Notes under the pieces: generated by a model
Told to the model about the DNA's origin: nothing
The model's database searches: none
What the model saw: only the letters and a program-made list of their open reading frames with translations
Part shown: positions 1,736 to 52,079 of the stretch, piece after piece
How the letters are laid out: each line of letters starts with the position of its first letter
How positions within the stretch are numbered: the stretch's first letter is position 1
Made by a program: the position numbers and the translations under genes
IMG/VR virus record: IMGVR_UViG_3300044846_005229
Span: 143,986 to 207,985 of that record
Strand: one strand, 5' to 3'
DNA: 64,000 bases
Origin: a virus

Positions 1736-2720
1736 GTAGGGGCCTTGGGGTTGTTGACTCCTGGGGTGTGGTGGTTGCTGTGGGGTTGCTGTGGGGGTTG
1801 AGTATCTGGGGTTGTTGACTCCCAAGGTGTGGTGGACAGTTTGTAAACTGTCTATTTGCGTTGGGAGTTTGGTACCGAGGGTGTGTTTTCGGAGTTAATG
1901 TGGAACCTCAGGGTGCATTTTCCGGGTAATGTAGAATGCCCCAAATTGAAAACCTGAAATTCAATCCCTGAGATCCATTGCGGGGGAACGGAGTTACTCC
2001 TAAAAAAATTAAAAATTTTAGGACCTAGTGAAAAACGATTCAAAAAATTCTACATTTGAATGCAAATTCTGCACCCTGGGGCTCTTTATATACACTTTTT
2101 CGCGAATATATGTATAATGAGTGTTTACCTTATGTTGTTATAGTTTGTTGTTGATGGGTCCAAGTAGTCAACAACTGGGAGTGGTCCCAACAGTCTCAGT
2201 TAAGTATCGGAATGAGTCTACATCGAGTAGTTTACAGTTGGTATTAGTCCCAACAGTCTCAGTTAAGTATCGGAATGAGACCCAACCGAACAGTCAACAA
2301 CTGGAATACGGTCTCAACAGTCTCGTTTCAGTCCCATAATGAGACCACACCTCAGGGTAAATATGGCAGGTATTTTCGGAGTTAATGTGGAACCTTGGGG
2401 TGCGTTTTGTGAGTAATGTGGAATGTTGAGTGCAGTTTTCGGAGTAATGTGGAAACCACAAAATCAAAAAACCAAAATCCATTCCTTGAAATCGACTGCA
2501 GGGCAACGGAGTTACTCCTAAAATTTTTGAATTTTTTAGGACCTAATGAAAAAACGATCCAAAAGTTCCACATTTGAATGCAAATTCTGCACCCTACTAC
2601 TATATACTCGCGTAAAAATTATTTATAGTACACCCTTATCTAAATATCCATAATCAATAAGTTACCCTTATCTATGTACCAACCAATGAGTAATAGCGGT
2701 AAAGCAACAAAAAAAGGAGG
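1736..2720 (+). repeat. composite repeat module copy A: IR element (about 1911-2076), plus-strand TATAAT (about 2113-2118), 24-nt direct-repeat array (2193-2343), second IR element (about 2380-2595), conserved AT-rich tail
   Basis: About 90% identical over about 950 bp to 5300..6240; partial third copy at 10085..10440. Seen directly in the sequence. Confidence 0.85.
2193..2343 (+). repeat. array of GTCTCAGTTAAGTATCGGAATGAG direct repeats (2 perfect and 1 degenerate terminal copy) with about 35-40 nt intervening segments, downstream of a TATAAT box
   Basis: Repeat starts at about 2193, 2256 and 2320; the promoter-like tgTATAATgag sits about 75 nt upstream. CRISPR-like or iteron-like layout. 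Confidence 0.6.
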
Positions 2721-2810
2721 GTCACCTTTCGGCAGCCCCCATATCAGTAAGTATTTATATTTACTGGGTGAAATTAGACCCCGGAACCAACAACCCCGGC
2801 AGCCCGACCT

Positions 2811-5299: not shown

Positions 5300-6240
5300 C
5301 ATGTTGACTCCTGGGGTGTGGTGGACAGTTTGTAAACTGTCTATTTGCGTTGGGGGTTTGACTTTAGGGGCTTGATTCCAGGGTGTATTTTAGGGGTTAA
5401 TGTATAATCCGGGGTGCGTTTTCCGGGTAATGTAGAATGCCTAATTTGAAAAGTCCGAAAGTCAACCGCTGAGATCGATTGCAGGGCAACGAGTTTACTC
5501 CTAAAATTTTTGAATTTTTTAGGACCTAGCGAAAAACCATCCAAAAAATTCTACATTTGAATGCATATTTTGCACCCTGGGGTCTTTATATACACTTTTT
5601 CGCGAATATATGTATAATAAGTGTTTACCTTATGTTGTTGGTGAGTTGAATAGTTGACGACTGGGTGTGATCTCGTCAGTCTCAGTTAAGTATCGGAATG
5701 AGTTCACATCGAGTAGTCTACAGTTGGCATCAGCCCCAACGGTCTCAGTTAAGTATCGGAATGAGACTCCACCAAATAGTAAACAACTGGGGTACGGTCT
5801 CAACAGTCTCGTTTCAGTCCCACAACAAGACTCATCCAAATAGTAAACAACTGGGGTACGGTCTCAACAGTCTCACTTCAATCTCACAATGAGATCACAC
5901 TTCAAGAGTAAGCAGATGGGTGCGTTTTTCCAGTAATGTAGAAACCCAGGGTGCATTTCCCAAGTAATGCAGAAACCCTAAAATCAAAAACCCGAAACTC
6001 AATCCCTGAGATCGACTGCAGCGGAACGGAGTTACTCCTAAAAAAATTAAAAATTTTAGGACCTTTTCAAAAACAGCATGAAAAATTCTACATTTGAATG
6101 CATATTTTGCACCCTACTACTATATACTCGCGTAAAAATTATTTATAGTACACTCTTATCTAAATATCCATAATCAATAAGTTATCCTTATCTATGTACC
6201 AACCAATGAGTAATAGCAGTAAGGCAACAAAAGAAAGGGG
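5300..6240 (+). repeat. composite repeat module copy B (IR element about 5385-5575; TATAAT about 5613-5618; 24-nt repeat array 5679-5893 with 2 perfect and 2 degenerate copies; IR element about 5915-6115)
   Basis: Paralogous to 1736..2720. The intervening segments are homologous between copies and one is internally duplicated. Confidence 0.85.
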
Positions 6241-6279
6241 GGAATCACCCTAAGGCAATCCCTCCCCTAAAAACAGCAC

Positions 6280-7460: not shown

Positions 7461-7826
7461 TCAATCCTTAGCGGTAATCTCAGCACCTTCCAGTAGTTTG
7501 GAAGCTAGGTCAGTATCACCCGCCTTAATTGCGTTTTGGATGCGTTCTTTCAAGGTTAGCTCGTATGACCATTTTCGGCCGTTGATGGTGCCCCTGACAT
7601 TGCCCCCGACAGAGCCCTCGACAGAGCCCCCGACAGAGCCCCCGACAGAGCCCCTGACATTGCCCCCGACAGAGCCCCTGACATTGCCCCCGACAGAGCC
7701 TAGGACATCACCCAAGACACCACCCCTGACATTGCCCCCGACAGAGCCCTCGACATCATTTACCCGCCATTCACCGCTGATTCTGGTGAAAGTAACTAGT
7801 TTTTTAATTTCTTCAATGCTTGGCAT
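7461..7826 (-). CDS. Gly/Val-rich octapeptide-repeat protein (GSVGGNVR x about 9), possibly a beta-helical or bactofilin-like fold
   Basis: ORF track; internal 24-nt periodicity visible in the DNA; promoter ggaattatagcatgg ... gtcaaccc at 7875-7915. Confidence 0.55.
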   Translation of the reverse strand: MPSIEEIKKLVTFTRISGEWRVNDVEGSVGGNVRGGVLGDVLGSVGGNVRGSVGGNVRGSVGGSVGGSVEGSVGGNVRGTINGRKWSYELTLKERIQNAIKAGDTDLASKLLEGAEITAKD

Positions 7827-8440: not shown

Positions 8441-8469
8441 TTGACAACCGCCGGAATCCACGCTATAAT
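8441..8469 (+). promoter_or_regulatory. perfect consensus plus-strand promoter TTGACA-17-TATAAT
   Basis: ttgacaaccgccggaatccacgctataat; it drives the conserved block listed next. Confidence 0.7.
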
Positions 8470-8475
8470 ATGCAC

Positions 8476-8545
8476 ATAACCAAACGAGGGGCGAGGTAGC
8501 CCTGAAGACGAAAAAGGTCGCCACGGAACCTGCTTGCTTATAGTT
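8476..8545 (+). ncRNA. candidate small RNA, copy 1 (conserved block GAGGGGCGAGGTAGCCCTGAAGACGAAAAAGGTCGCCACGG...)
   Basis: A near-identical about 50-nt block recurs at 10020-10075 behind a second consensus plus-strand promoter. No ORF. Followed by an A7G6 tract and a CCGGAGTCA short-repeat region. Confidence 0.45.
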
Positions 8546-9981: not shown

Positions 9982-10011
9982 TTGACAAGACTAGGGTAGT
10001 CGCCCTATAAT
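9982..10011 (+). promoter_or_regulatory. second consensus plus-strand promoter TTGACA-18-TATAAT
   Basis: gttgacaagactagggtagtcgccctataat. Confidence 0.7.
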
Positions 10012-10019
10012 AAGCAAAC

Positions 10020-10080
10020 AATCAGAGAAGGGGCGGGGTAGCCCTGAAGACGAAAAATGTCGCCACGGCCCCTACTTGCA
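10020..10080 (+). ncRNA. candidate small RNA, copy 2 (AAGGGGCGGGGTAGCCCTGAAGACGAAAAATGTCGCCACGGCCCCT...)
   Basis: Paralog of 8485-8540; contains a potential AGGGGC...GCCCCT closing stem. Confidence 0.45.
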
Positions 10081-10084
10081 ATTA

Positions 10085-10440
10085 AAGAGTTTATGCCATT
10101 GAGTTTATGCCATGGTGCATTTTGCGAGTAATGTAGAAGTCTAGGGTGTGTTTTCGGAGTTAATGTAGAATGCCAAGGGTGCTTTTTCTGGGTAATGTGG
10201 AAACCCCCAAATTGAAAATCGAAAATTCATTCCCTGAGATCCGTTGCAGGGCAACGGAGTTACTCCTAAAATTTTTGAATTTTTTAGGACCTAATGAAAA
10301 AACGATCCAAAAGTTCCACATTTGAATGCAAATTCTGCACCCTACTATCATATATTCGCGAAAAGTATATTTAATAGAAGACTCTTATGTATAGTTCCAT
10401 AACCAATAAGAAATCCTTATCACTGCACCCTCCATTCAAA
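10085..10440 (+). repeat. composite repeat module copy C (partial: one IR element with three GTGC.TTTT..G.GTAATGT.GAA direct repeats, hairpins GGAGTTACTCC and CCTAAAA...TTTTAGG)
   Basis: Homologous to the IR elements of modules A and B; lacks the internal promoter and array. Confidence 0.8.
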
Positions 10441-10441
10441 G

Positions 10442-10663
10442 TCAATCCACAGCCAACTCAAAGTCAACCTCAAAGGGGCCATCCCAATCCTGAGCCCATT
10501 GGGGGGCGCCCATGAAGCGAAGATCGTCCGACTGATGAGAGAATGGTTCAGGAACCGTGTCAACTACACAGACCCAAGTTGGAAGATTCTCCCGACGCAC
10601 GGGGTGGGCAGTGTCCCCGATCCATTCTTGAGCCAGGAAGGTGCAGCGTAGGGTGTGTGCCAT
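10442..10663 (-). CDS. hypothetical protein (73 aa)
   Basis: ORF track; promoter-like tagtttagcatgg ... gtcaaccccc at 10690-10740. Confidence 0.45.
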   Translation of the reverse strand: MAHTLRCTFLAQEWIGDTAHPVRRENLPTWVCVVDTVPEPFSHQSDDLRFMGAPQWAQDWDGPFEVDFELAVD

Positions 10664-17803: not shown

Positions 17804-17894
17804 GAACCCTCCGGGGTTGTGATTTGAGGTTGAACAAGCACACTATAGCACAATGCTAAGGCCCTGTCAACCCCCTTGCCCTACCGGAAGAGTG

Positions 17895-18059
17895 TCAATC
17901 ATTGGCGTTGCCTGTGATGATGGCCCTGATCCTGCCATGCCGCCTTCTTAATTCTCTCCTAGCGTCCTTCTCATTGGCTGCTATTACATAATCATAGCTG
18001 TGGACTCCAGGAACCTCGTTGTTATCGGCAGTAGTGAAATAAAGCAGGAAGGTTTCCAT
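17895..18059 (-). CDS. small basic-tailed protein (54 aa), start moved to METFLLYF
   Basis: Track 17895..18113; -10 tcttagcatgg at about 18082-18092. Confidence 0.4.
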   Translation of the reverse strand: METFLLYFTTADNNEVPGVHSYDYVIAANEKDARRELRRRHGRIRAIITGNAND

Positions 18060-18149
18060 GTTGGTTGTGAGGCGACAGTTGTGATACCATCTTAGCATGG
18101 TGCTGGTGGTCATGTCTATGCGATCAAGTGTTGTTGGCTGTGTAGGATT

Positions 18150-18372
18150 AGTAAGTATTTATACTTAGTGCTTGGCCAGGGTGGGCACCACCCGATGTCG
18201 TTGACTCCTATAAGTTGGTAAGTATTTATACTTAGTGCTGGTTAGGTTAGGGGCCGTCTAGTGTCGTTGACTTCTGGGGGTTTGTAAGTATTTATACTCA
18301 CTGCCGGCTAAGTCGGAGTCCCCCCGGTGTCGTTGGCTCCCCTCAAGTCAGTAAGTATTTATACTCACTGTT
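18150..18372. repeat. 4 tandem about 62-bp units, each ending in the palindromic motif GTAAGTATTTATACT(T/C)A and containing GTGTCGTTGAC
   Basis: Seen directly; single copies of the palindrome AAGTAT-WW-ATACTT also occur at about 2750, 21525, 23130 and 26640, always just upstream of minus-strand genes. Confidence 0.7.
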
Positions 18373-18527
18373 CAAAAACAAAAAACCTATAATTTTCGGA
18401 GGGGGCGTTAGCCCCCGACTGGTTCGGGCGCCGTAGGCGGTAACCCGAAGCTCAATCCCAGGGTCACCAATCCCCAGGGCTACCATTCCCTAGGCCATCA
18501 ATCCCCCGGCCATCGACCCAACAGCAA

Positions 18528-19913
18528 TCACAAAACCTCAGGTAAAACATAGCCTTTAATTTTCGCAACCCGCTTATTCAAAATAGCCCAATCATCCAAA
18601 TCCTTAAACCTAAAGTGAGCAGACCCCTTCAGGAATACCTTAAACTCAAAGAATCCCCAATCTTGCCATACCCCTGGTTCCAATCGGTCTTTGCCACAAA
18701 CAGGGTCCTTAACGGCATCATAATCTTTGCCAGTCAAAGTAGATAGGACCTTAATTAAGTCCGCTACCTTATAGTAATTAGTCTGATAGGATCTAACAGA
18801 TACGGTCCCCCCACTCCAATCTTTCTCCGCAAAGTACGGCAAAATAAACTTCTTCCCAAATAAATACTGCTCATTGGTCTTCCATCCTTCTACACCATGT
18901 CTATTATCGTGATAATGCTTAGTGAAAGCATCGAAAACTTGCTCTACAGTCCTATCCAATCGCTGATCCTGAGTTGCAATAACGATCTCCAACATCCTGT
19001 AGATATTCCTCATTGTAAACGGAACCTTACTTTGTTGCTCCACAAACCTGTTAATATCTTTAAGCAATTCCGTAGTTGCCAATTTCTCCATTCCCATCTT
19101 ACTAAATACAAATTCCCACGCTGATCTTTGCAGGTCTTTTTGAAAGTCATTCCTTGCTTTTGCCTGGCCATTTTCCGTACAAACAAATGCGATATTTGAT
19201 TTGTAAAATCCGCTCAGCACCCTATTTATACCAACTGCAGACTCAATCTGCCTATCATAAATCCTGCAGGCTTCCACGTATCGGTTGACAATATCCCTAA
19301 CAAAATTATACGGAATCAGACCTTCCCCTTCAGCTTCAATTGCATCGGGACCCATAAAGAACCCATTAAACTCAGCATCAGAACCCAAGGCAGGCTTCCT
19401 AAGGGTAACTAATCCTATTGCCACATCCGTAGAACGCTCCGCACCCTTAAAGACCTCACCCAAGTTCTCAACGTGCCCATAGTTTCTAATTAGGGTCCCC
19501 AATTGCCTACGCGCCAAAGAATATTCATTTCGTACAGTCTCCCAATTACATAATGACACAATTTGACACCCTGGCGGTGCAATCTCGAAGGCATAGTTAA
19601 TATGTTTTTCGTCCCCACTGAAAGGGGGATTCATTATGATGAAGTCCACATGGCTTATTGCTTCCGGTTGAACATCCAGGAAGTCGGTGCCAATTAGTTT
19701 ACATTGTTTTGCTGCCAGGATTGCCCTGAGGTTATCATCAATTTCACACGCCAGAACTTCACTAGCCCCATATTGCAAGCAACCTTCTACCAAATTGCCA
19801 GAACCTGCGGATGGCTCCAGAACAACTTTGCCATTCAAGTCGAATGGGGCTAGCATGTAGGATATTACGTGTTCCGGGGTCGGATAATAGTCTTTGTTGT
19901 TATAGGATGGCAT
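18528..19913 (-). CDS. N6-adenine DNA methyltransferase (motif order X-I-IV: TPEHVISYM ... VLEPSAGSGNL ... IMNPPF) with a large C-terminal region
   Basis: NPPF catalytic motif and FxGxG-like AdoMet motif. Start moved to MPSYNNKDYYPTPEHV; the track N-terminal 49 aa are Pro-rich and probably non-coding. Confidence 0.75.
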   Translation of the reverse strand: MPSYNNKDYYPTPEHVISYMLAPFDLNGKVVLEPSAGSGNLVEGCLQYGASEVLACEIDDNLRAILAAKQCKLIGTDFLDVQPEAISHVDFIIMNPPFSGDEKHINYAFEIAPPGCQIVSLCNWETVRNEYSLARRQLGTLIRNYGHVENLGEVFKGAERSTDVAIGLVTLRKPALGSDAEFNGFFMGPDAIEAEGEGLIPYNFVRDIVNRYVEACRIYDRQIESAVGINRVLSGFYKSNIAFVCTENGQAKARNDFQKDLQRSAWEFVFSKMGMEKLATTELLKDINRFVEQQSKVPFTMRNIYRMLEIVIATQDQRLDRTVEQVFDAFTKHYHDNRHGVEGWKTNEQYLFGKKFILPYFAEKDWSGGTVSVRSYQTNYYKVADLIKVLSTLTGKDYDAVKDPVCGKDRLEPGVWQDWGFFEFKVFLKGSAHFRFKDLDDWAILNKRVAKIKGYVLPEVL

Positions 19914-20096
19914 TGGGTTCCGGTGGGTAATGGTGGGATGACCGGTAGTGGGGGTTAGTGGCGGGGGGAATAGCTGGTAATGAGGGGTAATGGGGAAGGG
20001 TGGATAGGCAGGGTACCAGTTAGTTGCGGTGGGAATGATTGATAGCGACGATGGCCACAAGCGGTCAGACCCCCAAAGTCAACCCAAAGTCAAACC

Positions 20097-20390
20097 TCAG
20101 GCAATAACTTCTAACAATTCTAAATCAAAACAATCGTCAGGCTTCAAGTAGCCGGTTACCTTGACAAAGGAGCCTTCCTTCAATTTAAGGATCTGGCTCT
20201 CATATTCTGTCCCCCAAAACTCGCCGCAAGCCCTGAGAACTTTAGTAGGGCGCGGGTTACGGTTGACAGTCAAATGAAAGAAGACAATATAGGTGCCGCA
20301 ACTAGGATTAACAATCAACCTACTAATTTGGCCCGTAAGGGTAAGGCGATTGAAGCAAAAGTCATCATCGTCGTTGCCGGATTGAGTCAT
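20097..20390 (-). CDS. single OB-fold protein, SSB/PriB-like (97 aa)
   Basis: NRLTLTGQISR...YIVFFHLTVNRNP...EFWGTEYESQILKLKEGSFVKVTGYL follows the SSB OB-fold pattern (weak, pattern-level only). C7T9 tract in the 5' region. Confidence 0.35.
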   Translation of the reverse strand: MTQSGNDDDDFCFNRLTLTGQISRLIVNPSCGTYIVFFHLTVNRNPRPTKVLRACGEFWGTEYESQILKLKEGSFVKVTGYLKPDDCFDLELLEVIA

Positions 20391-20518
20391 TTTTTGGTGG
20401 GAATTGTTACCGTATGAAAAAAAAAGGGGGGGTGACCATTTGGTTTGAACCCACTATAGCACGATGCCAGGGCATCGTTAATTCCTGGCCTAAACCAAAC
20501 AGCAATATTAAAGCAAGG

Positions 20519-21442
20519 TCAAACCCAATCCTCAGCTTCTTTCCGAGTCATATAGAAATGAATACCGTTAGTACACTCAATCCGAATATCGTCATCATAA
20601 CTATCTGCAACCACAATCTCGCCTTCCTCGTATTCAAGGGCATTCCAAGTATGGATAGGGGAGTTGCCGGACCCTTCCAAGACTAAAACATGGGACGCCC
20701 TACATTTCCTACCCACCAATGTAGAAGTTCTCTTAGCATCTTCTGGGATCAGGATTTTGATAACCCCTGTATCAACTTTTTTGAACGCAATAAATGACCC
20801 CTCCTCTGGGACTAATTGAAAGGGGGGAAGAGTTGCACCCCGGAGATCAGCACCCTGGAGAATAGCACCCCGGAGAATAGCACCCCGAAGATTAGCATCC
20901 CGGAGATCAGCATCCTGGAGATCAGCACCCCGGAGATCAGCACCCTGGAGAATAGCACCCCGGAGAATAGCACCCCGGAGATCAGCACCCCGAAGATTAG
21001 CATCCCGGAGATCAGCTTCCTGGAGATTAGCACCCCGGAGATCAGCACCCCGAAGATTAGCATCCCGGAGATTAGCACCCTGGAGATCAGCATCCCGGAG
21101 AATAGCACCCCGGAGATCAGCATCCTGGAGATTAGCACCCCGGAGAATAGCACCCCGGAGATCAGCACCCCGGAGATCAGCATCCCGGAGAATAGCACCC
21201 TGGAGAATAGCACCCTGGAGAATAGCACCCCGGAGATCAGCACCCCAGAGAATAGCACCCTGGAGATCAGCACCCCGAAGATTAGCATCCCGGAGATCAG
21301 CATCCTGGAGATTAGCACCCCGGAGATCAGAAAACGGCCCAATAACGTACTCAGACCCGTTGATTAGCATTGTTTTGGAAGACATTGTTTTTGGAGAATG
21401 GGTATTGGTGGGGGGTTGATTGGGAGCGGTTTGCCCTGGCAA
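20519..21442 (-). CDS. pentapeptide-repeat protein (about 40 A(D/N)LRG repeats) with N- and C-terminal non-repeat domains
   Basis: ORF track; 15-nt DNA periodicity. The opposite-strand and alternative-frame ORFs here (20812..21342, 20816..21367) are repeat artefacts. Palindromic AAGTATAAATAC motif at about 21525 and consensus promoter at 21455-21495. Confidence 0.8.
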   Translation of the reverse strand: MPGQTAPNQPPTNTHSPKTMSSKTMLINGSEYVIGPFSDLRGANLQDADLRDANLRGADLQGAILWGADLRGAILQGAILQGAILRDADLRGADLRGAILRGANLQDADLRGAILRDADLQGANLRDANLRGADLRGANLQEADLRDANLRGADLRGAILRGAILQGADLRGADLQDADLRDANLRGAILRGAILQGADLRGATLPPFQLVPEEGSFIAFKKVDTGVIKILIPEDAKRTSTLVGRKCRASHVLVLEGSGNSPIHTWNALEYEEGEIVVADSYDDDIRIECTNGIHFYMTRKEAEDWV

Positions 21443-21561
21443 CGGGCCCCACTATCTCACTATAGCATGGTGCCGGGGCAGTGTCAACCCCCATAGCTTC
21501 AACCCCTAGGTCAGATAAGTATAAATACCTACCCACCCAAACAGTATAAGCACTAAGGCCA

Positions 21562-21987
21562 TCAGTCTATCCTAACAACAATAACCGCACTCTCCAGCAA
21601 GGTACCATCTGGCAACCTGCAAACTACAGAGCTAGTATAAGCCTTGCGCTTGCGATTACCAATCGAAACCACACCTTCCAGCCGATATCCCGTAGGAAAA
21701 CAACCCTGAAGTTGCCTCTCCCCGTACAACGTATAAGACTCAATGAGTCCACCCTCGCTATGGCAAATCGAAACTGCCGGAGCTTTGAATCCGATAATAG
21801 TATCATGGACTCCGACCTTATCACAAATGCCCCGACAATCTTCTAGGTTAGGGGAAATATATTGTTGCCATTGCGATACAGTAAGGGCCAAGGCGTTTTC
21901 TTTCCAGTGGGCTGTAATCGGCGGTTTTTGCTTTCGTGACTTTGGGGGTTTTGTGGTTTTGGGGGTGCGAAGGCTAAATGTTTGCAT
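21562..21987 (-). CDS. hypothetical protein (141 aa), start moved to MQTFSLRTPK
   Basis: Track 21562..22092 spans the promoter (cccataatagcacgg ... gtcaactcc at 22025-22065). Confidence 0.5.
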   Translation of the reverse strand: MQTFSLRTPKTTKPPKSRKQKPPITAHWKENALALTVSQWQQYISPNLEDCRGICDKVGVHDTIIGFKAPAVSICHSEGGLIESYTLYGERQLQGCFPTGYRLEGVVSIGNRKRKAYTSSVVCRLPDGTLLESAVIVVRID

Positions 21988-22154
21988 AGGTGCAGGTTGG
22001 TTGCTGTTTGGATGCTGTTTGGTTATGGGCCCATAATAGCACGGTGTCAATGCAGTGTCAACTCCGCGTAGCTTTAACCAAACGGCAATCATGGTGCCAA
22101 TGCAGTGTCAACCCCCATAGCTTCAACCAAACAGAAAGCATGATGCCGGGGCAG

Positions 22155-22397
22155 TCAACCCCCGGTGGTCTTACCAATTCGGTAGGCAATAATGGCAACA
22201 TCAACAAGAGCTTCACTCAAGGCATCAACATGAACCTCGTGAAAGTCTAATCTATCGCGGCCCCTACTTTTTAAGGTCGGGATACCTAATCTTTTCTTGG
22301 CAATCTGCTCTAGTTTTCTTTCTAAATTCTGAAAAAGGGGATCATCTAATGGATCGGTGTCAGGTGCCGGGTTACTTACCGAGTGAAGTTCTTCCAT
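22155..22397 (-). CDS. hypothetical protein (80 aa)
   Basis: ORF track; GTCAAC-containing upstream region at 22400-22470. Confidence 0.5.
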   Translation of the reverse strand: MEELHSVSNPAPDTDPLDDPLFQNLERKLEQIAKKRLGIPTLKSRGRDRLDFHEVHVDALSEALVDVAIIAYRIGKTTGG

Positions 22398-22472
22398 TGG
22401 TTGTTGGTTGCTGTTTGGTGACTGTTTGGTTATGAGACTATCCTAGCATCGTGCCGTGGCATTGTCAACCCC

Positions 22473-22688
22473 TTATTTTGCCATCCAGTTTTTACAATTC
22501 CAATCCCCTGGGGTTTTGATGAAAGTACCATTTGTGGCAATTCCACTTTTAACAACTAGCTTCCCATTCGGTTTACCCTTGGGTTGATTAGGAATAGAAA
22601 TAACAATGGAACTAGCCCTAATGCCAGAACAATCACCAATATTGAATCCCCTATAACTCCAATACCTGCATGTTTTACATTTTTTCAT
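22473..22688 (-). CDS. small Cys-rich protein (71 aa; CKTC...DCSG...WNC)
   Basis: Track ORF 22473..22814 overlaps the upstream gene; internal start MKKCKTCRYW chosen. AT-rich. Confidence 0.4.
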   Translation of the reverse strand: MKKCKTCRYWSYRGFNIGDCSGIRASSIVISIPNQPKGKPNGKLVVKSGIATNGTFIKTPGDWNCKNWMAK

Positions 22689-22698
22689 TTTTCTGATC

Positions 22699-23037
22699 TC
22701 AAACATCCAAAAGTTCTCTAATCTGTTCGGCAGTGAGCCTTGAAAGGATAAGCCCTTTTTCCTTTTCACTAAGGTTGTCAATTGTGACTTCTTTTTTCTT
22801 CCTGAGAATCTCAAGACAAGTCAAATACTTAGGATTATCGCCGTATGGAAAGGCACTATCTAAATCTTCATCTAAATCTTCTACACCCTCAATACAATCT
22901 TGAACTTCAATATTTGGGTTCTTATCATTATTAACAATTATATCACGATTTTCGTATGCGACAAAATAGGCATCTCCAAAATCGTCCGCCATGACTATTA
23001 CATCGTAAGTAATCTTTACCGAATAAAGTTTTTTCAT
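22699..23037 (-). CDS. acidic hypothetical protein (112 aa), AT-rich
   Basis: ORF track; palindromic AAGTATAAATACTT at about 23128-23143 and consensus promoter at about 23060-23100. Confidence 0.5.
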   Translation of the reverse strand: MKKLYSVKITYDVIVMADDFGDAYFVAYENRDIIVNNDKNPNIEVQDCIEGVEDLDEDLDSAFPYGDNPKYLTCLEILRKKKEVTIDNLSEKEKGLILSRLTAEQIRELLDV

Positions 23038-23142
23038 TGGTTGTTGGTGGCTGTTTGGTTATGAGACTACCCTAGCATGGTGCCGTGGCATTGTCAACCC
23101 CTTAGAATTGTTAACTACTGTGGGTCAAATAAGTATAAATAC

Positions 23143-24570
23143 TTACCCCGAAACCCTGACATCCCTAATCTCTATACCCTCAGCTTCCAGCAACTCCCGG
23201 AGCCTATCTGCCTCCTTAAAATCACGGTTAGCCCTTGCGATATTACGTTTTTCAATTAGTGCTTGAATACCATCGCTTTTTGGTTTTTGAGGTGCGGGAA
23301 CCTCATGAACTAATCCTAAAATTCCGGCCAATTCACATAAGAGCCTCCAACGATTTAGAATTTCCCTATTTTCATCGCCCGCTGATACGATGGGGCGAGC
23401 CAAATAGAACAATTCCCCGATGGCTACAGACGTATTAAGATCATCATTGAGTGCCGAAATGAAACGATCTTGACTATTTTTTAAGTCTGTAGTTAAAATC
23501 AAGGGTTCATTCGTTTGCTGACTATCGCCATGTTGACTAATTCCATGCCGACTAACATCATGCTGACTAGCCCCATGCCAACTATCACCATGCCAACCAA
23601 ACCCCAATGCAGCATTTAATACTTTCCAACCATTGATCGCGGGCACCATTGCTTCCGAATTAAAATCTATCGGCTTTCTATAGTGGGCTTGTAATACGAA
23701 TAATCTAATGGTCATAGGGCTAATTCCTGATCCAATTAGGTCTCTGATGGTTGTGAAATTCCCTAAGGATTTAGCCATTTTCTCTTCCCCAACCGTGACA
23801 AACCCATTATGAAGCCAATACCTGGCTAGTTCAGCCCCATTGGCGGCCTCCGACTGGGCTATCTCGTTTTCGTGGTGAGGAAAGATCAGGTCGGCTCCGC
23901 CCAAATGAATGTCAATCGTGTCGCCCAACTCCCCGCGCACCATAGCCGAACATTCAATGTGCCAGCCGGGACGGCCCCACCCCCATGGTGACGGGTACCC
24001 ATGGTCAATAGGCATTGCCCCTTTCCAAAGAGCAAAATCAAAAGGGTGGCCCTTCTTTGAGTCGCTATTAACCTGTTGTTGGCCAAGGTTGCGACCACTT
24101 AGTTTCCCGTACCCCTTAAACCCCACAACCGAGAAGTACATATCACCACCCATAGAATAAGCAAACCCTTTATCAGCAAGGTCTTGAATCATGGTGCGGA
24201 TTGCATCAAGACTACGGGTAACCCTTGGCATTTTGTCGGCAGGCAGGATGTTCAATGTGCCCATGTCTTCCTCAAAGGCCTTAATATTGCGCTCACTGAC
24301 GGCCCCGATTGTTACTCCTTCGGAGTTGGCTTTGGCTAGAATTTTATCGTCGATATCCGTATAATTTTGAACAAACGTAACCTCATACCCATGCCACATA
24401 AAATTACGCCTTAAGACATCCCACACGATATAACTACGGGCGTGCCCTAAGTGGCATAGATCATAAACGGTAACACCGCAACAATACATCGACACTTTGC
24501 CTGGAACCAGCGGGATAAACTTCTCTTTGGTTTTAGTTAGGGTGTTGGTTAGGGTAATGTCGTTAATCAT
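23143..24570 (-). CDS. cysS: cysteinyl-tRNA synthetase (class I; HIGH = CHLGHARSY, KMSKS = KMAKSLGN) with a low-complexity insertion WHGDSWHGASQHDVSRHGISQHGDSQQ
   Basis: Full-length alignment-level similarity to CysRS (zinc ligands and anticodon-binding region present). The insertion is encoded by about 15-nt tandem DNA repeats (catgYYgactaRYM) at about 23520-23600. Confidence 0.9.
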   Translation of the reverse strand: MINDITLTNTLTKTKEKFIPLVPGKVSMYCCGVTVYDLCHLGHARSYIVWDVLRRNFMWHGYEVTFVQNYTDIDDKILAKANSEGVTIGAVSERNIKAFEEDMGTLNILPADKMPRVTRSLDAIRTMIQDLADKGFAYSMGGDMYFSVVGFKGYGKLSGRNLGQQQVNSDSKKGHPFDFALWKGAMPIDHGYPSPWGWGRPGWHIECSAMVRGELGDTIDIHLGGADLIFPHHENEIAQSEAANGAELARYWLHNGFVTVGEEKMAKSLGNFTTIRDLIGSGISPMTIRLFVLQAHYRKPIDFNSEAMVPAINGWKVLNAALGFGWHGDSWHGASQHDVSRHGISQHGDSQQTNEPLILTTDLKNSQDRFISALNDDLNTSVAIGELFYLARPIVSAGDENREILNRWRLLCELAGILGLVHEVPAPQKPKSDGIQALIEKRNIARANRDFKEADRLRELLEAEGIEIRDVRVSG

Positions 24571-24588
24571 TGTGTTTTGCAGTATCGA

Positions 24589-24852
24589 TCATTTGTTGAT
24601 TTCCTGTTGATTTCCCGTTGATTGTTGGCATGAAAGAGCCACCCATTTCTCTAAATAAAGAATGTCTTCTTCCGTGAGAGGTTCCAATCCTTCGCAGATT
24701 TTCCTCCAATAATCATTTCCTTGGGGGGTTTCAGACCAAAGGAAGGCATACACTAAGGATTCAAGATCGCCATTAAGAACTTTGATGGCGTCTTCCCGAG
24801 TAAGACTCGGAAGTCTTTCAATTTTGGTTTCCAGTTGTTCGTATTTTTTCAT
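24589..24852 (-). CDS. hypothetical protein (87 aa)
   Basis: ORF track. Confidence 0.5.
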   Translation of the reverse strand: MKKYEQLETKIERLPSLTREDAIKVLNGDLESLVYAFLWSETPQGNDYWRKICEGLEPLTEEDILYLEKWVALSCQQSTGNQQEINK

Positions 24853-24956
24853 GGGGGGTCGATAGTTGGGTTTGTGGTTGCTTTGTGGTTTAGGGCCAAT
24901 CGTAGACTCAATGAGGGCTCAATGTGTACCTATTATAGCATGGTTCCGAAGCAAAA

Positions 24957-25646
24957 TCAATCCCTGCCCTTAGCAAGGTACATCCGGTCAAAAATCATAA
25001 ACGGCAATTCATTATTTGCAGTACCTAAACTACCTTCCACAAACTCAATAATAAGGGCCTGCATTACTTTGGCGTACTCCGGGTGAGACTCCACAAACTT
25101 GATTGCCCCTGGTGTTAATGCCGATGCAATCGTGGATAGGGCTTCGGGTTCCAAGGAATTAGCTTCTTTCGGTGTTTGTTGTGGCCCCTGTTCGGGGTCG
25201 GACGGGCTTGGACCCTTATCTAGAATTTCAATTTCCCTAATATTACGTCCTGTAGAACAATAGTTTTCTCCATCATTGTAATAAAGCAATGTTCCCCTAC
25301 CCTCCGGGTAGAACACATACGAGTTAGTGACATATGGGCGAAGCATCCCAGTGTAAACTTCATTATGACAAGTAGTTACTTTAACTACATTATCAACATA
25401 CTTAGAAAGGTCAATCATTGGTTGAGGTTCAAGGGTTGATAGTTGGATTTTCACAATGTCATTGCGATGGGGGGTCCAGCCGTCGTTGTAACAGCCATCT
25501 ATTTTATAGGATAATCCGCTGATAGTGTAAGGATATGATTCGGAGCTATTGGCTAATAATAGGGTATTAAGAAGAATTTCCCCGTTATGAAGCTCAACAT
25601 CAACTTCTTTGCCGACAAATTGTGAGAGGTTTAGTTTCAGTGCCAT
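24957..25646 (-). CDS. hypothetical protein (229 aa), start moved to MALKLNLSQF
   Basis: Promoter cattgtagcatgg at about 25688-25700 overlaps the track start; C6T8 tract immediately 5' of the ATG. Confidence 0.55.
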   Translation of the reverse strand: MALKLNLSQFVGKEVDVELHNGEILLNTLLLANSSESYPYTISGLSYKIDGCYNDGWTPHRNDIVKIQLSTLEPQPMIDLSKYVDNVVKVTTCHNEVYTGMLRPYVTNSYVFYPEGRGTLLYYNDGENYCSTGRNIREIEILDKGPSPSDPEQGPQQTPKEANSLEPEALSTIASALTPGAIKFVESHPEYAKVMQALIIEFVEGSLGTANNELPFMIFDRMYLAKGRD

Positions 25647-25788
25647 AGTAAAAAAAAGGGGGGTGTATTCGGGGCCCCGTGGCCCCATTGTAGCATGGTA
25701 TTAGGGGGAACGTAAACCCGTCTCTGTCCATGCCTAGCGACTTGCTGTAGGGGGGGTTAGCGATGGGCCGTGTCGTTGGCTCAGGGGG

Positions 25789-26508
25789 TCAACTACCACG
25801 CAGCGCTAACCCACGGCTGCCACCAACCTGAGTATTCAATCCCACTCCATTGGCCGCCTGAGCACCCATTTGGGTTCCACTGCGAGTAACACAGGTACTT
25901 TTAGTTGTAGTGATCTTGCCAAAAGAACCATCGACAAAGGAATTAACTGCTTTCAATTCTCTGGCATCTTTGTCGGCTACCGTAAGTCCGGGGGTTTTAA
26001 TGCCAGTGCCATAGCCATCTCTAGTTTCCTTCATATTACGCAAACGACTACCTATCGTAAGAGCAAAACCCTTTCTAAAATCAGCCTTAAATGACCGTGG
26101 CGAATAGGGATTAGCGGCTTTGGCATTATCCGCCAGCTTAGTCATAACCTCCATGATATACTCAAAGTACAATTCAATTTGAATTTGATTGCCTTTAGAA
26201 GCCACAATCTTTAGGGTAATTCCTTCGCGCCTGCCGCCAAATTGAATGAGTCTACCATTGAAGAATTTTGTAATCGAATTCAAAACCCAGGATTCGGCCT
26301 TATCCATGCGCTTACCCCGGAGAAGATCAATAACGACAACACCATCCCTTTCCGGGTCATAATCTGCGTTGATGTCATTGGCAGTAACACCATGCTGCCT
26401 ACAAAGTTTCTCAAGGAATTCCGTCGCATTGGCAGCTTCGTTTGCATTGGAGGATTCCTGCATCTTCATTACCTTAGCAATTTTGGCCTTGATTTCTGAG
26501 GAGATCAT
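25789..26508 (-). CDS. DUF2786-like protein (239 aa)
   Basis: N-terminal KAKIAKVMKMQESSNANEAANATEFLEKLCRQHG resembles the DUF2786 helical N-terminus (recollection). Start moved to MISSEIKAK after the TATAAT at about 26568-26580. Confidence 0.4.
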   Translation of the reverse strand: MISSEIKAKIAKVMKMQESSNANEAANATEFLEKLCRQHGVTANDINADYDPERDGVVVIDLLRGKRMDKAESWVLNSITKFFNGRLIQFGGRREGITLKIVASKGNQIQIELYFEYIMEVMTKLADNAKAANPYSPRSFKADFRKGFALTIGSRLRNMKETRDGYGTGIKTPGLTVADKDARELKAVNSFVDGSFGKITTTKSTCVTRSGTQMGAQAANGVGLNTQVGGSRGLALRGS

Positions 26509-26649
26509 TTTGATTGTCGGGGAAAGGGAACGGATGGGAACGGGGCACCAAAGCAGCGCCCTCACCCCGTTATTATACCATGCTGGGGAGACCTTGGCAA
26601 GATGCTATCGGGAGTCGTTGACTGTTACGGGTGAGATAAGTATTTATAC

Positions 26650-26952
26650 TCAGTGCCGTTTCTTTGAGTTCCTACCACTGTACCCACTGACTGGGATTGG
26701 GTTACCGTTTAGTTCCCTTTCATCTGCTAAATGCCACGCTATGGCCTCTGCTATTGCGGCTAATTTTTTACGTGCTGGTTTAGTGTAGAGGTGTAATCCT
26801 TCCGTTTCTTTGTTATTTGGGTCTCCTTCAATTTCGGATGTCAATTGGACAAGTTCCTGCTTAGAGTATCTTTTGTAGTATGTGTTTGAAGTTGGTACCA
26901 TGTTAAGGGAAAAAGAAAGGGCCATCGCCATGTAGCAACGACCCCATAGCAA
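26650..26952 (-). CDS. hypothetical protein (about 100 aa; start uncertain)
   Basis: ORF track; palindromic AAGTATTTATACT at about 26636-26650 just downstream. Confidence 0.4.
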   Translation of the reverse strand: MLWGRCYMAMALSFSLNMVPTSNTYYKRYSKQELVQLTSEIEGDPNNKETEGLHLYTKPARKKLAAIAEAIAWHLADERELNGNPIPVSGYSGRNSKKRH

Positions 26953-28209
26953 TCACTGATTAGCCCTGATTTGAACAGGCATCACCAGATAGGTGTATCT
27001 TGCCGTATCAATAGAACCAATCGGGAAAAAAACTGCCGGTGTTGTCGGGGCGTTCATTTGAATTTGAACTTTATCCGCACCCATAACCTTAGTTTTCAGG
27101 ACTTCAATCAGGTAACGCACATTAAATGCGATTGTGATTTCCGGACTATTACCAATGACCGTCAAACTCTCATTAAATGACATCATTCCTTCGGCTTGAG
27201 CACTAATTGTGGCCCCAACCTCAGTAAACTCAAACTTGACTACATTATTATGGGCATTAGCCACAATGGCAGCTTGCTCAAGTGTAGTCAGCAGAGAAAG
27301 ACGATCAAAGACAGCAACCGACTTGAAATTATCAGGAATCAACTGCCGATAGTTAGGGTATTGCCCATCTACCAATCGGAATTGAACCTTATAGTTACCA
27401 TACACTACGGTAACATCTTGCTTGGATACAGTGAAGGAAACCGGACTAAACTTAGGCTTAGCACCGATAATCTTAGCAATCTCTGCAAGGATCTTAGCGG
27501 GCATCGTAAAGTTAAATTCCGTTTCCCCGGTATCAACAATATCATCCAAAGTCAAAACCGACAACCTATGCCCATCCGTAGCAGCAAAAGACAAAGAATT
27601 GCCAGCAAGTTGCAGGTTGATCCCGGTAAGGAGCACCTTAGCTTGGTCCGAACTTGCCGAAAACAGGGTACTACCCAGGCCACCAACAAACTCAGCAGGT
27701 TGCACGCCGAACGTTATTGGATCGGTAGTAATACTGGCTGTGACTGGCAAACTCGGAAAATCGTCGGCAGGGATCGTATTGATCTTAACTGTCGCACCTT
27801 TATCTGCAGAAACCAACAACTTATCGTCAGAATCACCAGGATCAAAACTAAGGGTGACCGCCGAAGTCTTGGGCACCCCGTTTACGATATCCTTAAGGGT
27901 GAACACCGAAGCAGTAATTGAACCTGGAGACTCCACCGATGCAGCAATATCGACTGATACTTGTTTGATGAAACCGGAATTATTTCCTAGGTCAAATACC
28001 GTGGCCACTAACTTGCCTGAAGCACCATCAGCGGTAAGCAACACATTGAAGAGAACAGGGTGCTTAGCCCGCTTATCATAGTTCCGTGCCAGATCTTTAA
28101 GAGCCTGGCTGAGATCGGATTGGGCAACTACGGCTTTCATGTGACAGGGGGGTAGATGGTTTGGGAATGATGGACTCTGGGAGACAGCGGGCCAAAACCC
28201 GCTACTCAC
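26953..28209 (-). CDS. DnaN-like DNA polymerase sliding clamp (beta-clamp family); alternative start at 28140 (MKAVVAQ)
   Basis: MKAVVAQSDLSQALKDLARNY...HPVLFNVLLTADGASGKLVATVFDLGN parallels the DnaN N-terminus; three-domain length. Promoter -10 at about 28215-28220 and TTGAC at about 28240, so the upstream ATG at 28209 would be leaderless. Confidence 0.6.
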   Translation of the reverse strand: MSSGFWPAVSQSPSFPNHLPPCHMKAVVAQSDLSQALKDLARNYDKRAKHPVLFNVLLTADGASGKLVATVFDLGNNSGFIKQVSVDIAASVESPGSITASVFTLKDIVNGVPKTSAVTLSFDPGDSDDKLLVSADKGATVKINTIPADDFPSLPVTASITTDPITFGVQPAEFVGGLGSTLFSASSDQAKVLLTGINLQLAGNSLSFAATDGHRLSVLTLDDIVDTGETEFNFTMPAKILAEIAKIIGAKPKFSPVSFTVSKQDVTVVYGNYKVQFRLVDGQYPNYRQLIPDNFKSVAVFDRLSLLTTLEQAAIVANAHNNVVKFEFTEVGATISAQAEGMMSFNESLTVIGNSPEITIAFNVRYLIEVLKTKVMGADKVQIQMNAPTTPAVFFPIGSIDTARYTYLVMPVQIRANQ

Positions 28210-36077: not shown

Positions 36078-36836
36078 TCATATCTTAGGCAATTCAACTA
36101 CTTTGCTGATAGGTTCTGGGGGTACCATGGCATCAGCCCCACCATCGGCCCCACCAATCATCTTACCGTTATCAGCCATAGCCGCCATGGCATTCACACC
36201 ATAACTATGAGCAGTTTGGATAAAATGGGCTTCAACTTCTGCCTTGGCTCCTTCAACCATTTCCTCAGTTGCTTCTCTAAAGGATTCCACTGCAAAGTTA
36301 AGGTTTTTAGGTAGATTACTAGCTTGAGACTTCAAATTAGCTACAATTCCCTTCAGTTTAACTTTACTGATAGACTTATCATTTAGTATCTCTTCCAGTT
36401 GGCCTGCAATGGCATTGATTCCTTGCATAGCCTTATCAAGTTCAACCCCAAACTCCTTATCGAAACTATCTTTCCGGCTCTTTTCTGGGTGTTTAATCCC
36501 AGGAATAGCAACCAGTGGGCCCTCAGAAAGGCGATTCAAAGTAATTAGGGTAGCTTGACTTCTACCTGCTCCGGAGCCAAATCTCCCCCATTGGGCTTCA
36601 CTCATTGAGAACTCAACAACTTGACCCTTAGGAAATACCCAATCCCTATGCAAATCCCTTTCCAACTCCGCAGTTTGGATGGTTACCGATATGTAATGCC
36701 CATGGCTCAAGTCAGACCCGAACAAATTAACTCCGGGTGAACATTGCGGGCGAGTAACTGTGATCACCCCGTAAGCAGGATGACTGTAAACTTGGTTGTT
36801 GTCTTTGGTGGTGATGGTGGGGAGTTGATTGCTCAT
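36078..36836 (-). CDS. hypothetical protein (252 aa), start moved to MSNQLPTITT
   Basis: The track N-terminus is a Gln-rich low-complexity stretch (CAG/CAA repeats). Confidence 0.5.
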   Translation of the reverse strand: MSNQLPTITTKDNNQVYSHPAYGVITVTRPQCSPGVNLFGSDLSHGHYISVTIQTAELERDLHRDWVFPKGQVVEFSMSEAQWGRFGSGAGRSQATLITLNRLSEGPLVAIPGIKHPEKSRKDSFDKEFGVELDKAMQGINAIAGQLEEILNDKSISKVKLKGIVANLKSQASNLPKNLNFAVESFREATEEMVEGAKAEVEAHFIQTAHSYGVNAMAAMADNGKMIGGADGGADAMVPPEPISKVVELPKI

Positions 36837-36930
36837 TGTTTTTGTTGGGGTTGTTGTTGCTGGGGGTTGTTGCTGTCGCTGCTGTTGTCGCTGTCGGGTT
36901 ATATGGAAAGGGCCCATATCCACTATCTAA

Positions 36931-49867: not shown

Positions 49868-49980
49868 ATGGGACCAGTAGGATTTGAACCTACACCTCTC
49901 CTTTAACGTAGGAATTTAATTGCTGATGTATCTTTGACAAGATAACTTTCTTTAGCGCTCTGTCGTTGAGCTATGGTCCC
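49868..49980 (-). tRNA. tRNA-like gene with canonical acceptor, D and T arms and a candidate anticodon arm (TTCCT-ACGTTAA-AGGAG, GUU?), interrupted by an about 41-nt insertion between the D and anticodon arms
   Basis: GGGACCA-TA-GCTC-AACGACA-GAGC-G-[CTAAAGAAAGTTATCTTGTCAAAGATACATCAGCAATTAAA]-TTCCTACGTTAAAGGAG-AGGT-GTAGGTTCAAATCCTAC-TGGTCCC-A. The insertion contains its own hairpin TATCTT-GTCA-AAGATA. Confidence 0.5.
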
Positions 49981-51929: not shown

Positions 51930-52079
51930 TTTTCTTCTCTCAAGTTGATTGTTTTGTGTTTGTGTTTCGGATACAAATAATAGCTGTATCAACTTTGCCC
52001 CTAGGAGTTAATTTTAGGGGTGGTGGTGGGGGGCACTGACGGCCCCGATATTGGGCAGTTTGTAACTTAGCTGGGTCAA

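Follow-up and report, generated by a model that had tools for sequence, protein, structure and literature searches.

What is a short palindrome, repeated between the genes of a large virus, there to do? The question is raised by a 64,000-nucleotide stretch of DNA, positions 143,986 to 207,985 of the IMG/VR virus record IMGVR_UViG_3300044846_005229, in which an element of the form AAGTAT-WW-ATACTT, termed P here, recurs in intergenic gaps. The whole stretch is called the window, and positions are counted from its first letter. It had been predicted from the letters alone that P marks a regulon distinct from the consensus sigma70 set, being either a T4-late-promoter-like box or the operator of a dimeric regulator. 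We found that P is a real cis element under selection, which decorates a subset of sigma70 promoter cassettes and forms no separate stand-alone promoter class.

Occurrence and symmetry of the palindrome

When the window was scanned with AAGTATWWATACTT at up to one mismatch, eight matches were found (positions 2749, 18153, 18220, 18286, 18353, 21517, 23131 and 26638) against 0.04 expected from dinucleotide shuffles, and none of 100 shuffles reached eight, which shows that the enrichment is real. P marks a subset of the transcription units in one block, ~18-27 kb plus 2.7 kb. The sites upstream of the small gene 17895-18059, the pentapeptide-repeat gene, 22699-23037 and 25789-26508 lie where the original prediction had put them, and the four copies near 18 kb are in tandem as it said, with a spacing of 66-67 bp in place of its ~62-bp unit. 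The single copy that it reported near 2750 is also present, but has a core mismatch (AAATAT) and is followed after 8 nt by a terminator.

The comparative set consisted of one narrow lineage of metagenome loci (L-numbers), gathered by exact-protein look-ups, one protein search and one metagenome scan. It comprises near-identical strains (L017-L028, L030-L035) and more diverged ones, namely L045-L048 (methyltransferase 93-97% identical), L036, L037 and L050 (91%), and L040. P is present in every contig of the lineage although the flanks diverge, and extra loci were found in diverged strains (L022:4993; L036:2813, 5084, 5890 and 7407). The metagenome scan with the methyltransferase recovered the same narrow lineage only, and methyltransferase homologues of 38-55% identity in other phages (IMG/VR and metagenomes) had neither P nor an analogous array. 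IMG/VR searches with the sliding clamp and with the composite motif returned nothing from the lineage, while a scan of GTDB genomes for the composite pattern gave 36 single, unrelated matches lacking blastn similarity to the window and offering no hint of the host. Walking outward from the window (~10 kb past position 1 and <1 kb past 64 kb) revealed no further P sites.

Thirty non-redundant copies were then aligned. Where a 14-16-nt motif had been proposed, the conserved unit proved to be 16 bp, T-RRGTAT-WW-ATACYY-A, and its consensus, T-R-R-G-T-A-T-(AA/TT)-A-T-A-C-Y-Y-A, is two-fold symmetric. T(-1), A(+14) and C11 were found in 30/30 copies and G2 in 29/30, and the TAT/ATA arms show little or no variation; the conserved pairs are (-1,14), (2,11), (3,10), (4,9) and (5,8). 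The outer positions are R,R in the left arm and Y,Y in the right arm, with GG or CC absent from both; they change independently between the arms (one compensated pair in 60 cells), and no compensatory change was seen in the core of the 30 sites. Two equivalent RRGTAT half-sites predict just such independent variation of the arms, and symmetric conservation with separately degenerating half-sites is what is expected of a dimeric-regulator operator.

The element is not the true palindrome that it had been called: its centre is AA in 26 copies and TT in four (three loci), never AT or TA. Correspondingly, the claim that the coding strand reads TATAAATA holds at 6/8 window sites and 26/30 non-redundant sites, and fails at 21517 and 23131, which read TATTTATA, as do three loci in all. 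The TT-centred copies share the coding-strand 3' flank ACTTATYTGACC with the AA-centred ones, so that the centre alone is flipped; because the sense-oriented flank is kept, the flip must be tolerated. P is almost unchanged amid randomised immediate flanks and array spacers, and this holds for paralogues as well as for strains with methyltransferases that are 91-97% identical.

Every credible gene of the window lies on the - strand, and P is intergenic at all copies, either 0-20 nt past a stop codon or beside a terminator; the copies in L036 likewise follow stop codons by 0-20 nt. From P to the ATG the distance is ~90-100 nt. At the exceptional site 2749, the stem of the adjoining terminator is preserved in L036 although both of its arms have changed sequence.

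Register with sigma70 promoters and the array at 18 kb

About thirty near-consensus host-type promoters (GGGG-TTGACA-N17/18-TGnTAnnnT) stand on the coding strand of the window, and a near-consensus sigma70 promoter was found just downstream of P at 4/5 window loci and at nearly all loci of the relatives. Furthermore, a GTYRAC hexamer stands 13-15 nt downstream of the P 14-mer at nearly every locus, where it is either the -35 element GTTGACA itself or part of a conserved box, GTCAACGAC, that precedes the sigma70 promoter. Since P keeps this fixed register to the hexamer, it is an add-on to sigma70 promoters and not a replacement for them, and the proposal of a class apart from the sigma70 set is not borne out as it was put.

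Two classes of cassette could be distinguished. In class 1 (L022:4993, L022:5543, L036:5084 and L036:5890) the hexamer GTTGAC(A) is the -35 element, placing the dyad near -57; the cassette at L036:5890, for instance, reads P-N15-TTGACA-N17-TAGAAT. In class 2 (all array units, 26638 and L036:7407) the hexamer lies inside the B box, G-Y-C-A-A-C-R-A-C-A-Y, and the true -35 follows another 13-22 nt on, with the dyad at about -71 to -79 in the window. The sequences GTCAAC and GTTGAC are reverse complements of each other. Apparently decayed -35 elements (TTGAAG, GTTAAC) occupy the place of the hexamer at 21517 and 23131, and a functional promoter stands further on. The B box, GYCAACRACAY, occurs once in each array unit and again after the P at 26638. 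An orphan copy at 25770-25780 is accompanied by a spacer resembling that of array unit 2, and is probably a remnant of an array unit. The coordinates are collected in Table 1.

Table 1. Coordinates of P, the B box and associated features in the window
Feature	Position	Strand	Remarks
Intrinsic terminator	2709..2740	-	Hairpin plus T7; begins 8 nt past P 2749
P with one core mismatch (AAATAT; T-AAATATAAATACTT-A)	2748..2763	-	Perfect copy at the orthologous place, L036:19747
54-aa gene downstream of array	17895..18059	-	Absent in L045; displaced by inserted 112-aa gene in L036
Sigma70-type promoter of 54-aa gene, TAGACA-N18-TGCTAAGAT	18089..18118	-	Weak -35, extended -10; TTGACA in L040 and L046
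B box GCCAACAACAC, array unit 4	18128..18138	-	9 nt upstream of -35
P, array unit 4 (promoter-adjacent)	18152..18167	-	
B box GTCAACGACAT, array unit 3	18195..18205	-	
P, array unit 3	18219..18234	-	
B box GTCAACGACAC, array unit 2	18261..18271	-	
P, array unit 2	18285..18300	-	
B box GCCAACGACAC, array unit 1	18327..18337	-	15 nt downstream of the unit's P
P, array unit 1 (distal)	18352..18367	-	Coding strand cagT-GAGTATAAATACTT-Actg
Terminator-like region, methyltransferase operon end	18374..18416	-	Hairpin GGGGGC-TAAC-GCCCCC (18401-18416); T-rich run 18374-18385 abutting array unit 1
DUF4942 DNA methyltransferase gene	18528..19913	-	
Pentapeptide-repeat protein gene	ATG near 21385	-	
Sigma70 promoter TTGACA-N17-TATAGT, pentapeptide-repeat gene	21459..21487	-	
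P, TT-centred (T-AGGTATTTATACTT-A)	21516..21531	-	29 nt upstream of -35
Sigma70 promoter TTGACA-N17-TAGGGT, gene 22699-23037	23069..23097	-	
P, TT-centred	23130..23145	-	First three bases TAA = CysRS stop codon
CysRS gene	23143..24570	-	
Orphan exact B box GCCAACGACAC, no P	25770..25780	-	Upstream of promoter of gene 24957-25688
Sigma70 promoter TTGCCA-N17-TATAAT, gene 25789-26508 (DUF2786/DUF7168, phrog_421)	26572..26600	-	
B box GTCAACGACTC	26612..26622	-	15 nt downstream of P, 11 nt upstream of -35
P	26637..26652	-	First three bases TGA = stop codon of ORF 26650-26952
DnaN-type sliding clamp gene	26953..28209	-	

A candidate sigma70 promoter antisense to the cassettes on the + strand, TTGACT-N16/17-TATTTA, was rejected: its -10 ends without the conserved T, and with the better TATACT the spacer would have to be 20-21 nt. 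The only two consensus sigma70 promoters on the + strand of the window, at 8441-8537 and 9982-10079, are antisense to all genes; both precede the same conserved 75-nt sequence (84% identical) and may direct antisense small RNAs. The 5' leaders near 18059, 21385, 23037 and 26508 are A/C-rich and have no Shine-Dalgarno GGAG (for example CAACCAACATG and ACAACCAATG).

The array of four sites (18153-18366) has a period of 66 according to Tandem Repeats Finder, with start-to-start spacings of 67, 66 and 67 bp. In its units P and the B box are conserved, and the 10-nt and 23-nt spacers have diverged. It is bordered by the terminator-like hairpin and T-rich tract of the methyltransferase operon end on one side and by a promoter with an extended -10 and a weak -35 on the other. 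We also observed, shortly before the array, four copies of a G-rich direct repeat of 15-16 nt (18453-18514; CAATCCCAGGGCCAC on the + strand) in the gap from the stop codon of the methyltransferase to two conserved hairpins; the repeat varies between strains.

Comparison of the strains revealed that the array holds four copies in the window and L045-L048, three in L040 and two in L036. The gene behind it is the 54-aa gene in most strains, a 74-aa gene in L045, and in L036 an inserted 112-aa gene with its own promoter. In L045 the 54-aa gene has been deleted and two promoters are fused exactly in the -35 hexamer (GCAT-TGACA-GGGCC). When this whole-gene deletion and the insertion were compared (window 17842-18118, L045:2280-2400, L036:9490-10000), the joints were found to lie exactly in the -35 hexamer; L022 has an additional P cassette together with its gene. 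Because the downstream gene varies and the array stays after the methyltransferase, the array belongs with the operon boundary rather than with the small gene. Like the PeSL (promoter-early stem-loop) cassettes of T4-like phages, these cassettes double as recombination joints for promoter-mediated gene shuffling. Two further ideas about the array were dropped. The 54-aa protein is ruled out as an indispensable autoregulated P binder, its homologues being near-identical only and its gene missing in L045 despite a four-copy array. A mini-CRISPR array is contradicted by the B box common to the 'spacers' and by the occurrence of dispersed single copies.

A proposed dimeric-protein site and its rivals

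Mirror-symmetric and sequence-specific conservation, independent half-sites, tolerance of the flipped centre, intergenic placement and fixed register to promoter elements are together best explained by a site for a dimeric protein, and of the options offered in the original prediction the dimeric-regulator operator is the best fit to the symmetric conservation. We tentatively favour, with slightly less than even confidence, the view that P is an operator or insulator site for a putative dimeric DNA-binding protein. A two-fold symmetric, sequence-specific protein, encoded by the phage or its host, would recognise P, which would be built into compact boundary cassettes of the early or accessory region of the phage. 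Once bound, the protein would modulate transcription at unit boundaries via initiation at the adjacent promoter, and, as a roadblock or an insulator, it might in addition hold back read-through out of the preceding unit, a role that would fit the placement at stop codons. The two to four P plus B units after the methyltransferase operon could provide high-occupancy or cooperative binding, and the P-bearing units might form a co-regulated subset, or temporal sub-class, of otherwise constitutive consensus promoters.

Several observations weigh against such a site. The dyad is centred near -57 or -75, at promoters whose -35, -10 and extended -10 elements are of consensus type already; this is unclassical for a repressor, and consensus promoters should need no activator. 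The 66-67 bp spacing of the array is a non-integral number of helical turns. The copy at 2749 precedes a terminator and not a gene start, and no promoter lies nearby. Three loci form long hairpins that are specific to the sense strand. In addition, all copies may descend from one cassette, and the fixed spacing and shared flanks would then partly reflect common descent.

The search for a cognate protein is a further point on that side. No helix-turn-helix, ribbon-helix-helix, ParB, zinc-finger regulator or sigma family appeared among the families listed for the 117 open reading frames (ORFs) of the window (the top 25 of each Pfam and PHROGs batch scan, below which weaker matches may stand). 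Homologues of gp55, gp45 and regA were likewise absent from 296 kb of lineage DNA, which covers part of the ~279-kb genome, and the clamp of this phage is DnaN-type, not gp45. A search with the gp55 of the cyanophage S-CREM1 gave 8000 matches, saturated by Kyanoviridae, with none recognised as the lineage's own among the 120 listed. One ORF, 36078-36923 (- strand; 281 aa; phrog_6452), was considered as a sigma factor but found no support: the label derives from one RefSeq record, a homologue in Microbacterium phage Metamorphoo, and is unsupported by any Pfam or PDB sequence match. Its AlphaFold2 model is of low confidence (pLDDT 46.5) and shows long helices after a beta-rich N-terminus. None of the host regulator motifs considered (NtcA GTA-N8-TAC, CRP, LexA, Fur, NrdR and CIRCE) fits P.

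The rival that survives best, unlikely as we consider it, is that P is a T4-type late promoter, or a 'middle' one combining late and early elements, in which a gp55-like sigma reads TATAAATA and transcription starts ~6 nt downstream. Early in infection the P genes would then be read from sigma70, and later from P; the array would amount to four late promoters in tandem, and the TT-centred sites to late promoters on the antisense strand. The middle genes of T4-like cyanophages are reported to combine early with late motifs, several window genes are nearest to those of T4-like cyanophages (Kyanoviridae), and there is a weak match to the T4 gp30.3 domain. The exact TATAAATA on the coding strand at most sites counts in favour of this rival, and a T4 late-promoter oligonucleotide (gp55/gp33/gp45 system), GAGTATAAATACTC, is itself a 6+2+6 palindrome matching 13/14 bases of P (PMC7892883), so that palindromy alone is no argument against a promoter. 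T4 late transcripts can be of either polarity (PMC2988020).

The conservation of P, however, extends beyond the 8-bp TATAAATA box: T(-1), G2, C11 and A14 are invariant mirror images outside it, in a conserved block of 16 bp. The T4 oligonucleotide lacks T(-1) and A14, and its agreement at six flank positions would arise by chance in ~1/256 promoters, or ~0.2 times over 50 T4 late promoters. The three loci with TATTTATA on the coding strand keep their sense-oriented 3' flank. T4 late promoters have an AT-rich segment downstream of the 8-bp box (PMC2988020), whereas the sequence downstream of P reads CTTAC(C/T)NNACCC and is not AT-rich. P lies upstream of sigma70 promoters rather than directly before genes; the late motifs of the Kyanoviridae B3 and S-CREM1 stand 20-40 nt from the ATG and lack the GTAT..ATAC context, as against ~90-100 nt for P. 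The site at 2749 would fire directly into the terminator 8 nt on. With no gp55, gp45 or sigma homologue found in the ~300 kb of lineage DNA within reach and the clamp of DnaN type, the late-promoter half of the original prediction is further weakened.

Plain TATAAATA was also found in a separate element, module A, a non-coding-looking sequence of ~180-290 nt present in five copies of 69-85% identity (window 1896-2721, 5397-6241 and 10162-10469). Two of its copies have the octamer followed by an AT-rich segment (2627 and 6147). The ORFs called inside module A look spurious, and it has no Rfam match.

A doubtful alternative is that P acts in RNA, as the apical part of a stem-loop in read-through transcripts that would serve attenuation or termination, mark a processing site or protect 3' ends. 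The layout of stop codon, stem-loop, sigma70 promoter and gene matches that of PeSLs (PMC4122927; PMC2839356). Long sense-specific, G.U-rich hairpins were predicted at L036:2812 (-22.7 kcal/mol, z -3.8), L036:9425 (-19.4, z -4.1) and window 21517 (-15.1, z -2.2), sense-strand G.T pairs within P outnumber A.C pairs by 16 to 6, and P 2749 directly precedes a true terminator hairpin. Against this, the hairpin of P alone is weak (-2.5 to -10 kcal/mol), AU-rich and devoid of a U tract, and at most sites extension of the stem is not significant. The 30 sites show neither compensatory change in the core nor covariation at the outer positions, and in the flanks G.U-type pairs have no strand bias (75 vs 72). 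When P itself was tested as an intrinsic terminator, the GC-rich stem and U tract were absent; true terminators adjoin it at 2709-2740 and, more weakly, at 18374-18416, and the P sites went undetected in a simple terminator scan. Terminators would also be poorly matched by four weak hairpins in tandem, each accompanied by a B box that is conserved and single-stranded.

That the 18.1-18.5 kb region is a cis site for replication, partition or packaging (iterons or an origin, a sopC/parS-like centromere, or pac), with the single copies as auxiliaries, we regard as improbable. The array does consist of four direct 66-bp units, each with a palindrome, and thereby resembles F sopC, whose tandem repeats each hold an inverted repeat, and the iterons of the lambda origin. 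The non-coding region around it is complex, containing also 15-nt repeats (18453-18514), a T-rich tract and a pair of conserved hairpins, and the array is anchored after the methyltransferase gene despite the changing downstream gene. Dispersed single copies at fixed promoter spacing at four other loci and an array copy number varying from two to four between close strains speak against it, as do the absence of a Rep, ParB or terminase gene nearby and of a local GC-skew extremum. Least probable of all, a functionless hitch-hiker spread with duplicating and recombining promoter cassettes would suit the clear recombination of the cassettes and the lasting remnants seen in the orphan B box at 25770 and the decayed promoter fragments (GTTAAC, TTGAAG), but not the near-invariance of P amid randomised surroundings.

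The phage and comparison with known systems

Freshwater metagenome contigs, the longest of 279,339 bp, carry exact copies of window proteins, which indicates an uncultured freshwater jumbo phage of ~280 kb. The exact CysRS and 74-aa proteins are on the ~279-kb contig, and the phage is met repeatedly in JGI freshwater samples, among them 3300042569, 3300042459 and 3300005662. Megablast with 10 kb of the window matched no isolated phage at the DNA level, and at the protein level isolated phages gave distant matches or single accessory genes. For several window genes the best homologues are in the Kyanoviridae, T4-like cyanophages of freshwater and estuarine Synechococcus: the TROVE protein is 57% identical to those of phages B3 and B23, and the RNA ligase and SPFH protein are 60% and 72% identical to those of S-CREM1. 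Because several accessory genes are closest to this family, the host is likely a cyanobacterium. No T4 core genes were seen in the window or the accessible lineage DNA, and the window and every flank within reach are devoid of structural genes.

Other products of the window include a CCA-adding or poly(A) polymerase-like enzyme, kinase-like, NADAR and Macro proteins and two phosphoesterases. A set for RNA repair and translation can be discerned, consisting of CysRS, two AlaRS-fragment ORFs, the CCA-adding-like enzyme, the RNA ligase, the kinase-like AAA_33 protein and three tRNAs; apart from these tRNA matches Rfam gave none in the window, and for 1-12 kb it gave none at all. A 112-nt tRNA-like sequence at 49869-49980 (- strand), which scored 47.8 bits to the Rfam tRNA model and was not called by ARAGORN, lies just downstream of the Ro/TROVE-like gene 50457-51992, and Synechococcus phage B3 has a 110-nt 'tRNA-Pseudo-GCA' at the corresponding place. 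It may be a tRNA-like Y RNA of YrlA type, the partner of the Ro protein. Repeats were also found within genes: a 12-nt unit, GCCCCCGACAGA, in ~14 tandem copies at 7589-7756 inside ORF 7461-7826, and a 15-nt repeat in ~33 copies at 20835-21327 of the pentapeptide gene.

Of the systems on record, the PeSL cassettes of T4-like phages come nearest in layout and in the way they evolve. PeSLs place a stem-loop just upstream of a promoter (Comeau et al. 2014, PMC4122927; Arbiol et al. 2010, PMC2839356); the stem-loops are GC-rich, with a G-run, a loop and a C-run, and have been shown to terminate transcription (PMC2839356; PMC4122927). The cassettes described here likewise pair a strong sigma70-like promoter with an inverted repeat immediately before it, set between the stop of a small ORF and the next start, in a one-strand, ORFan-rich region, and indels or replacements between relatives are joined inside them (the L045 deletion in the -35, the L036 insertion and the extra L022 cassette). 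P departs from a PeSL in being a 16-bp palindrome that is AT-rich, invariant in sequence and free of a U tract; it stands at a subset of cassettes only, and has a companion B box with which it is amplified into an array of two to four units.

Two other systems share single features with P. In the 'stoperators' of mycobacteriophages L5 and Bxb1 and the C1 operators of P1, copies of a short site are scattered in intergenic gaps, often touching stop codons and in fixed orientation; these sites are asymmetric 13-17-mers to which the immunity repressor of a temperate phage binds, and they influence elongation or initiation at many units. P is similarly scattered in short gaps, touching stop codons in fixed orientation to transcription, but it is symmetric and clustered in ~9 kb, and the window shows no lysogeny genes. 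The late promoters activated by P2 Ogr and P4 Delta have a dyad, TGT-N12-ACA, near -55, and the Ogr-dependent ones lack a good -35. The P dyad lies ~55-57 bp upstream of the start for host RNA polymerase in class 1 cassettes of the relatives, whereas the promoters linked to P come close to consensus at the -35, the -10 and the extended -10.

A bolder proposal, which we put forward as speculative and rather unlikely, is that P and the B box are targets of a regulator of an undescribed family, a notion prompted by the fact that no known DNA-binding domain was reported across the 64 kb. They would form a boundary element between stop codon and promoter that blocks read-through and times consensus host-type promoters in a lytic ~280-kb freshwater jumbo phage, a symmetric, lytic counterpart of mycobacteriophage stoperators carried in mobile PeSL-like cassettes. 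In a variant of the idea, a dimeric protein would gate P, itself then a palindromic late promoter of gp55 type.

Lineage-specific regulatory palindromes are common in phages, and P is unsurprising in kind. It marks transcription-unit boundaries and is thus an aid to annotating this phage group. If P is a regulator site, it would offer a handle on the temporal subdivision of early genes dependent on host RNA polymerase in a large uncultured freshwater phage, probably a cyanophage. The PeSL idea, by which mobile promoter/stem-loop cassettes drive gene shuffling, would in that case also extend to a lineage and a sequence type without prior description.

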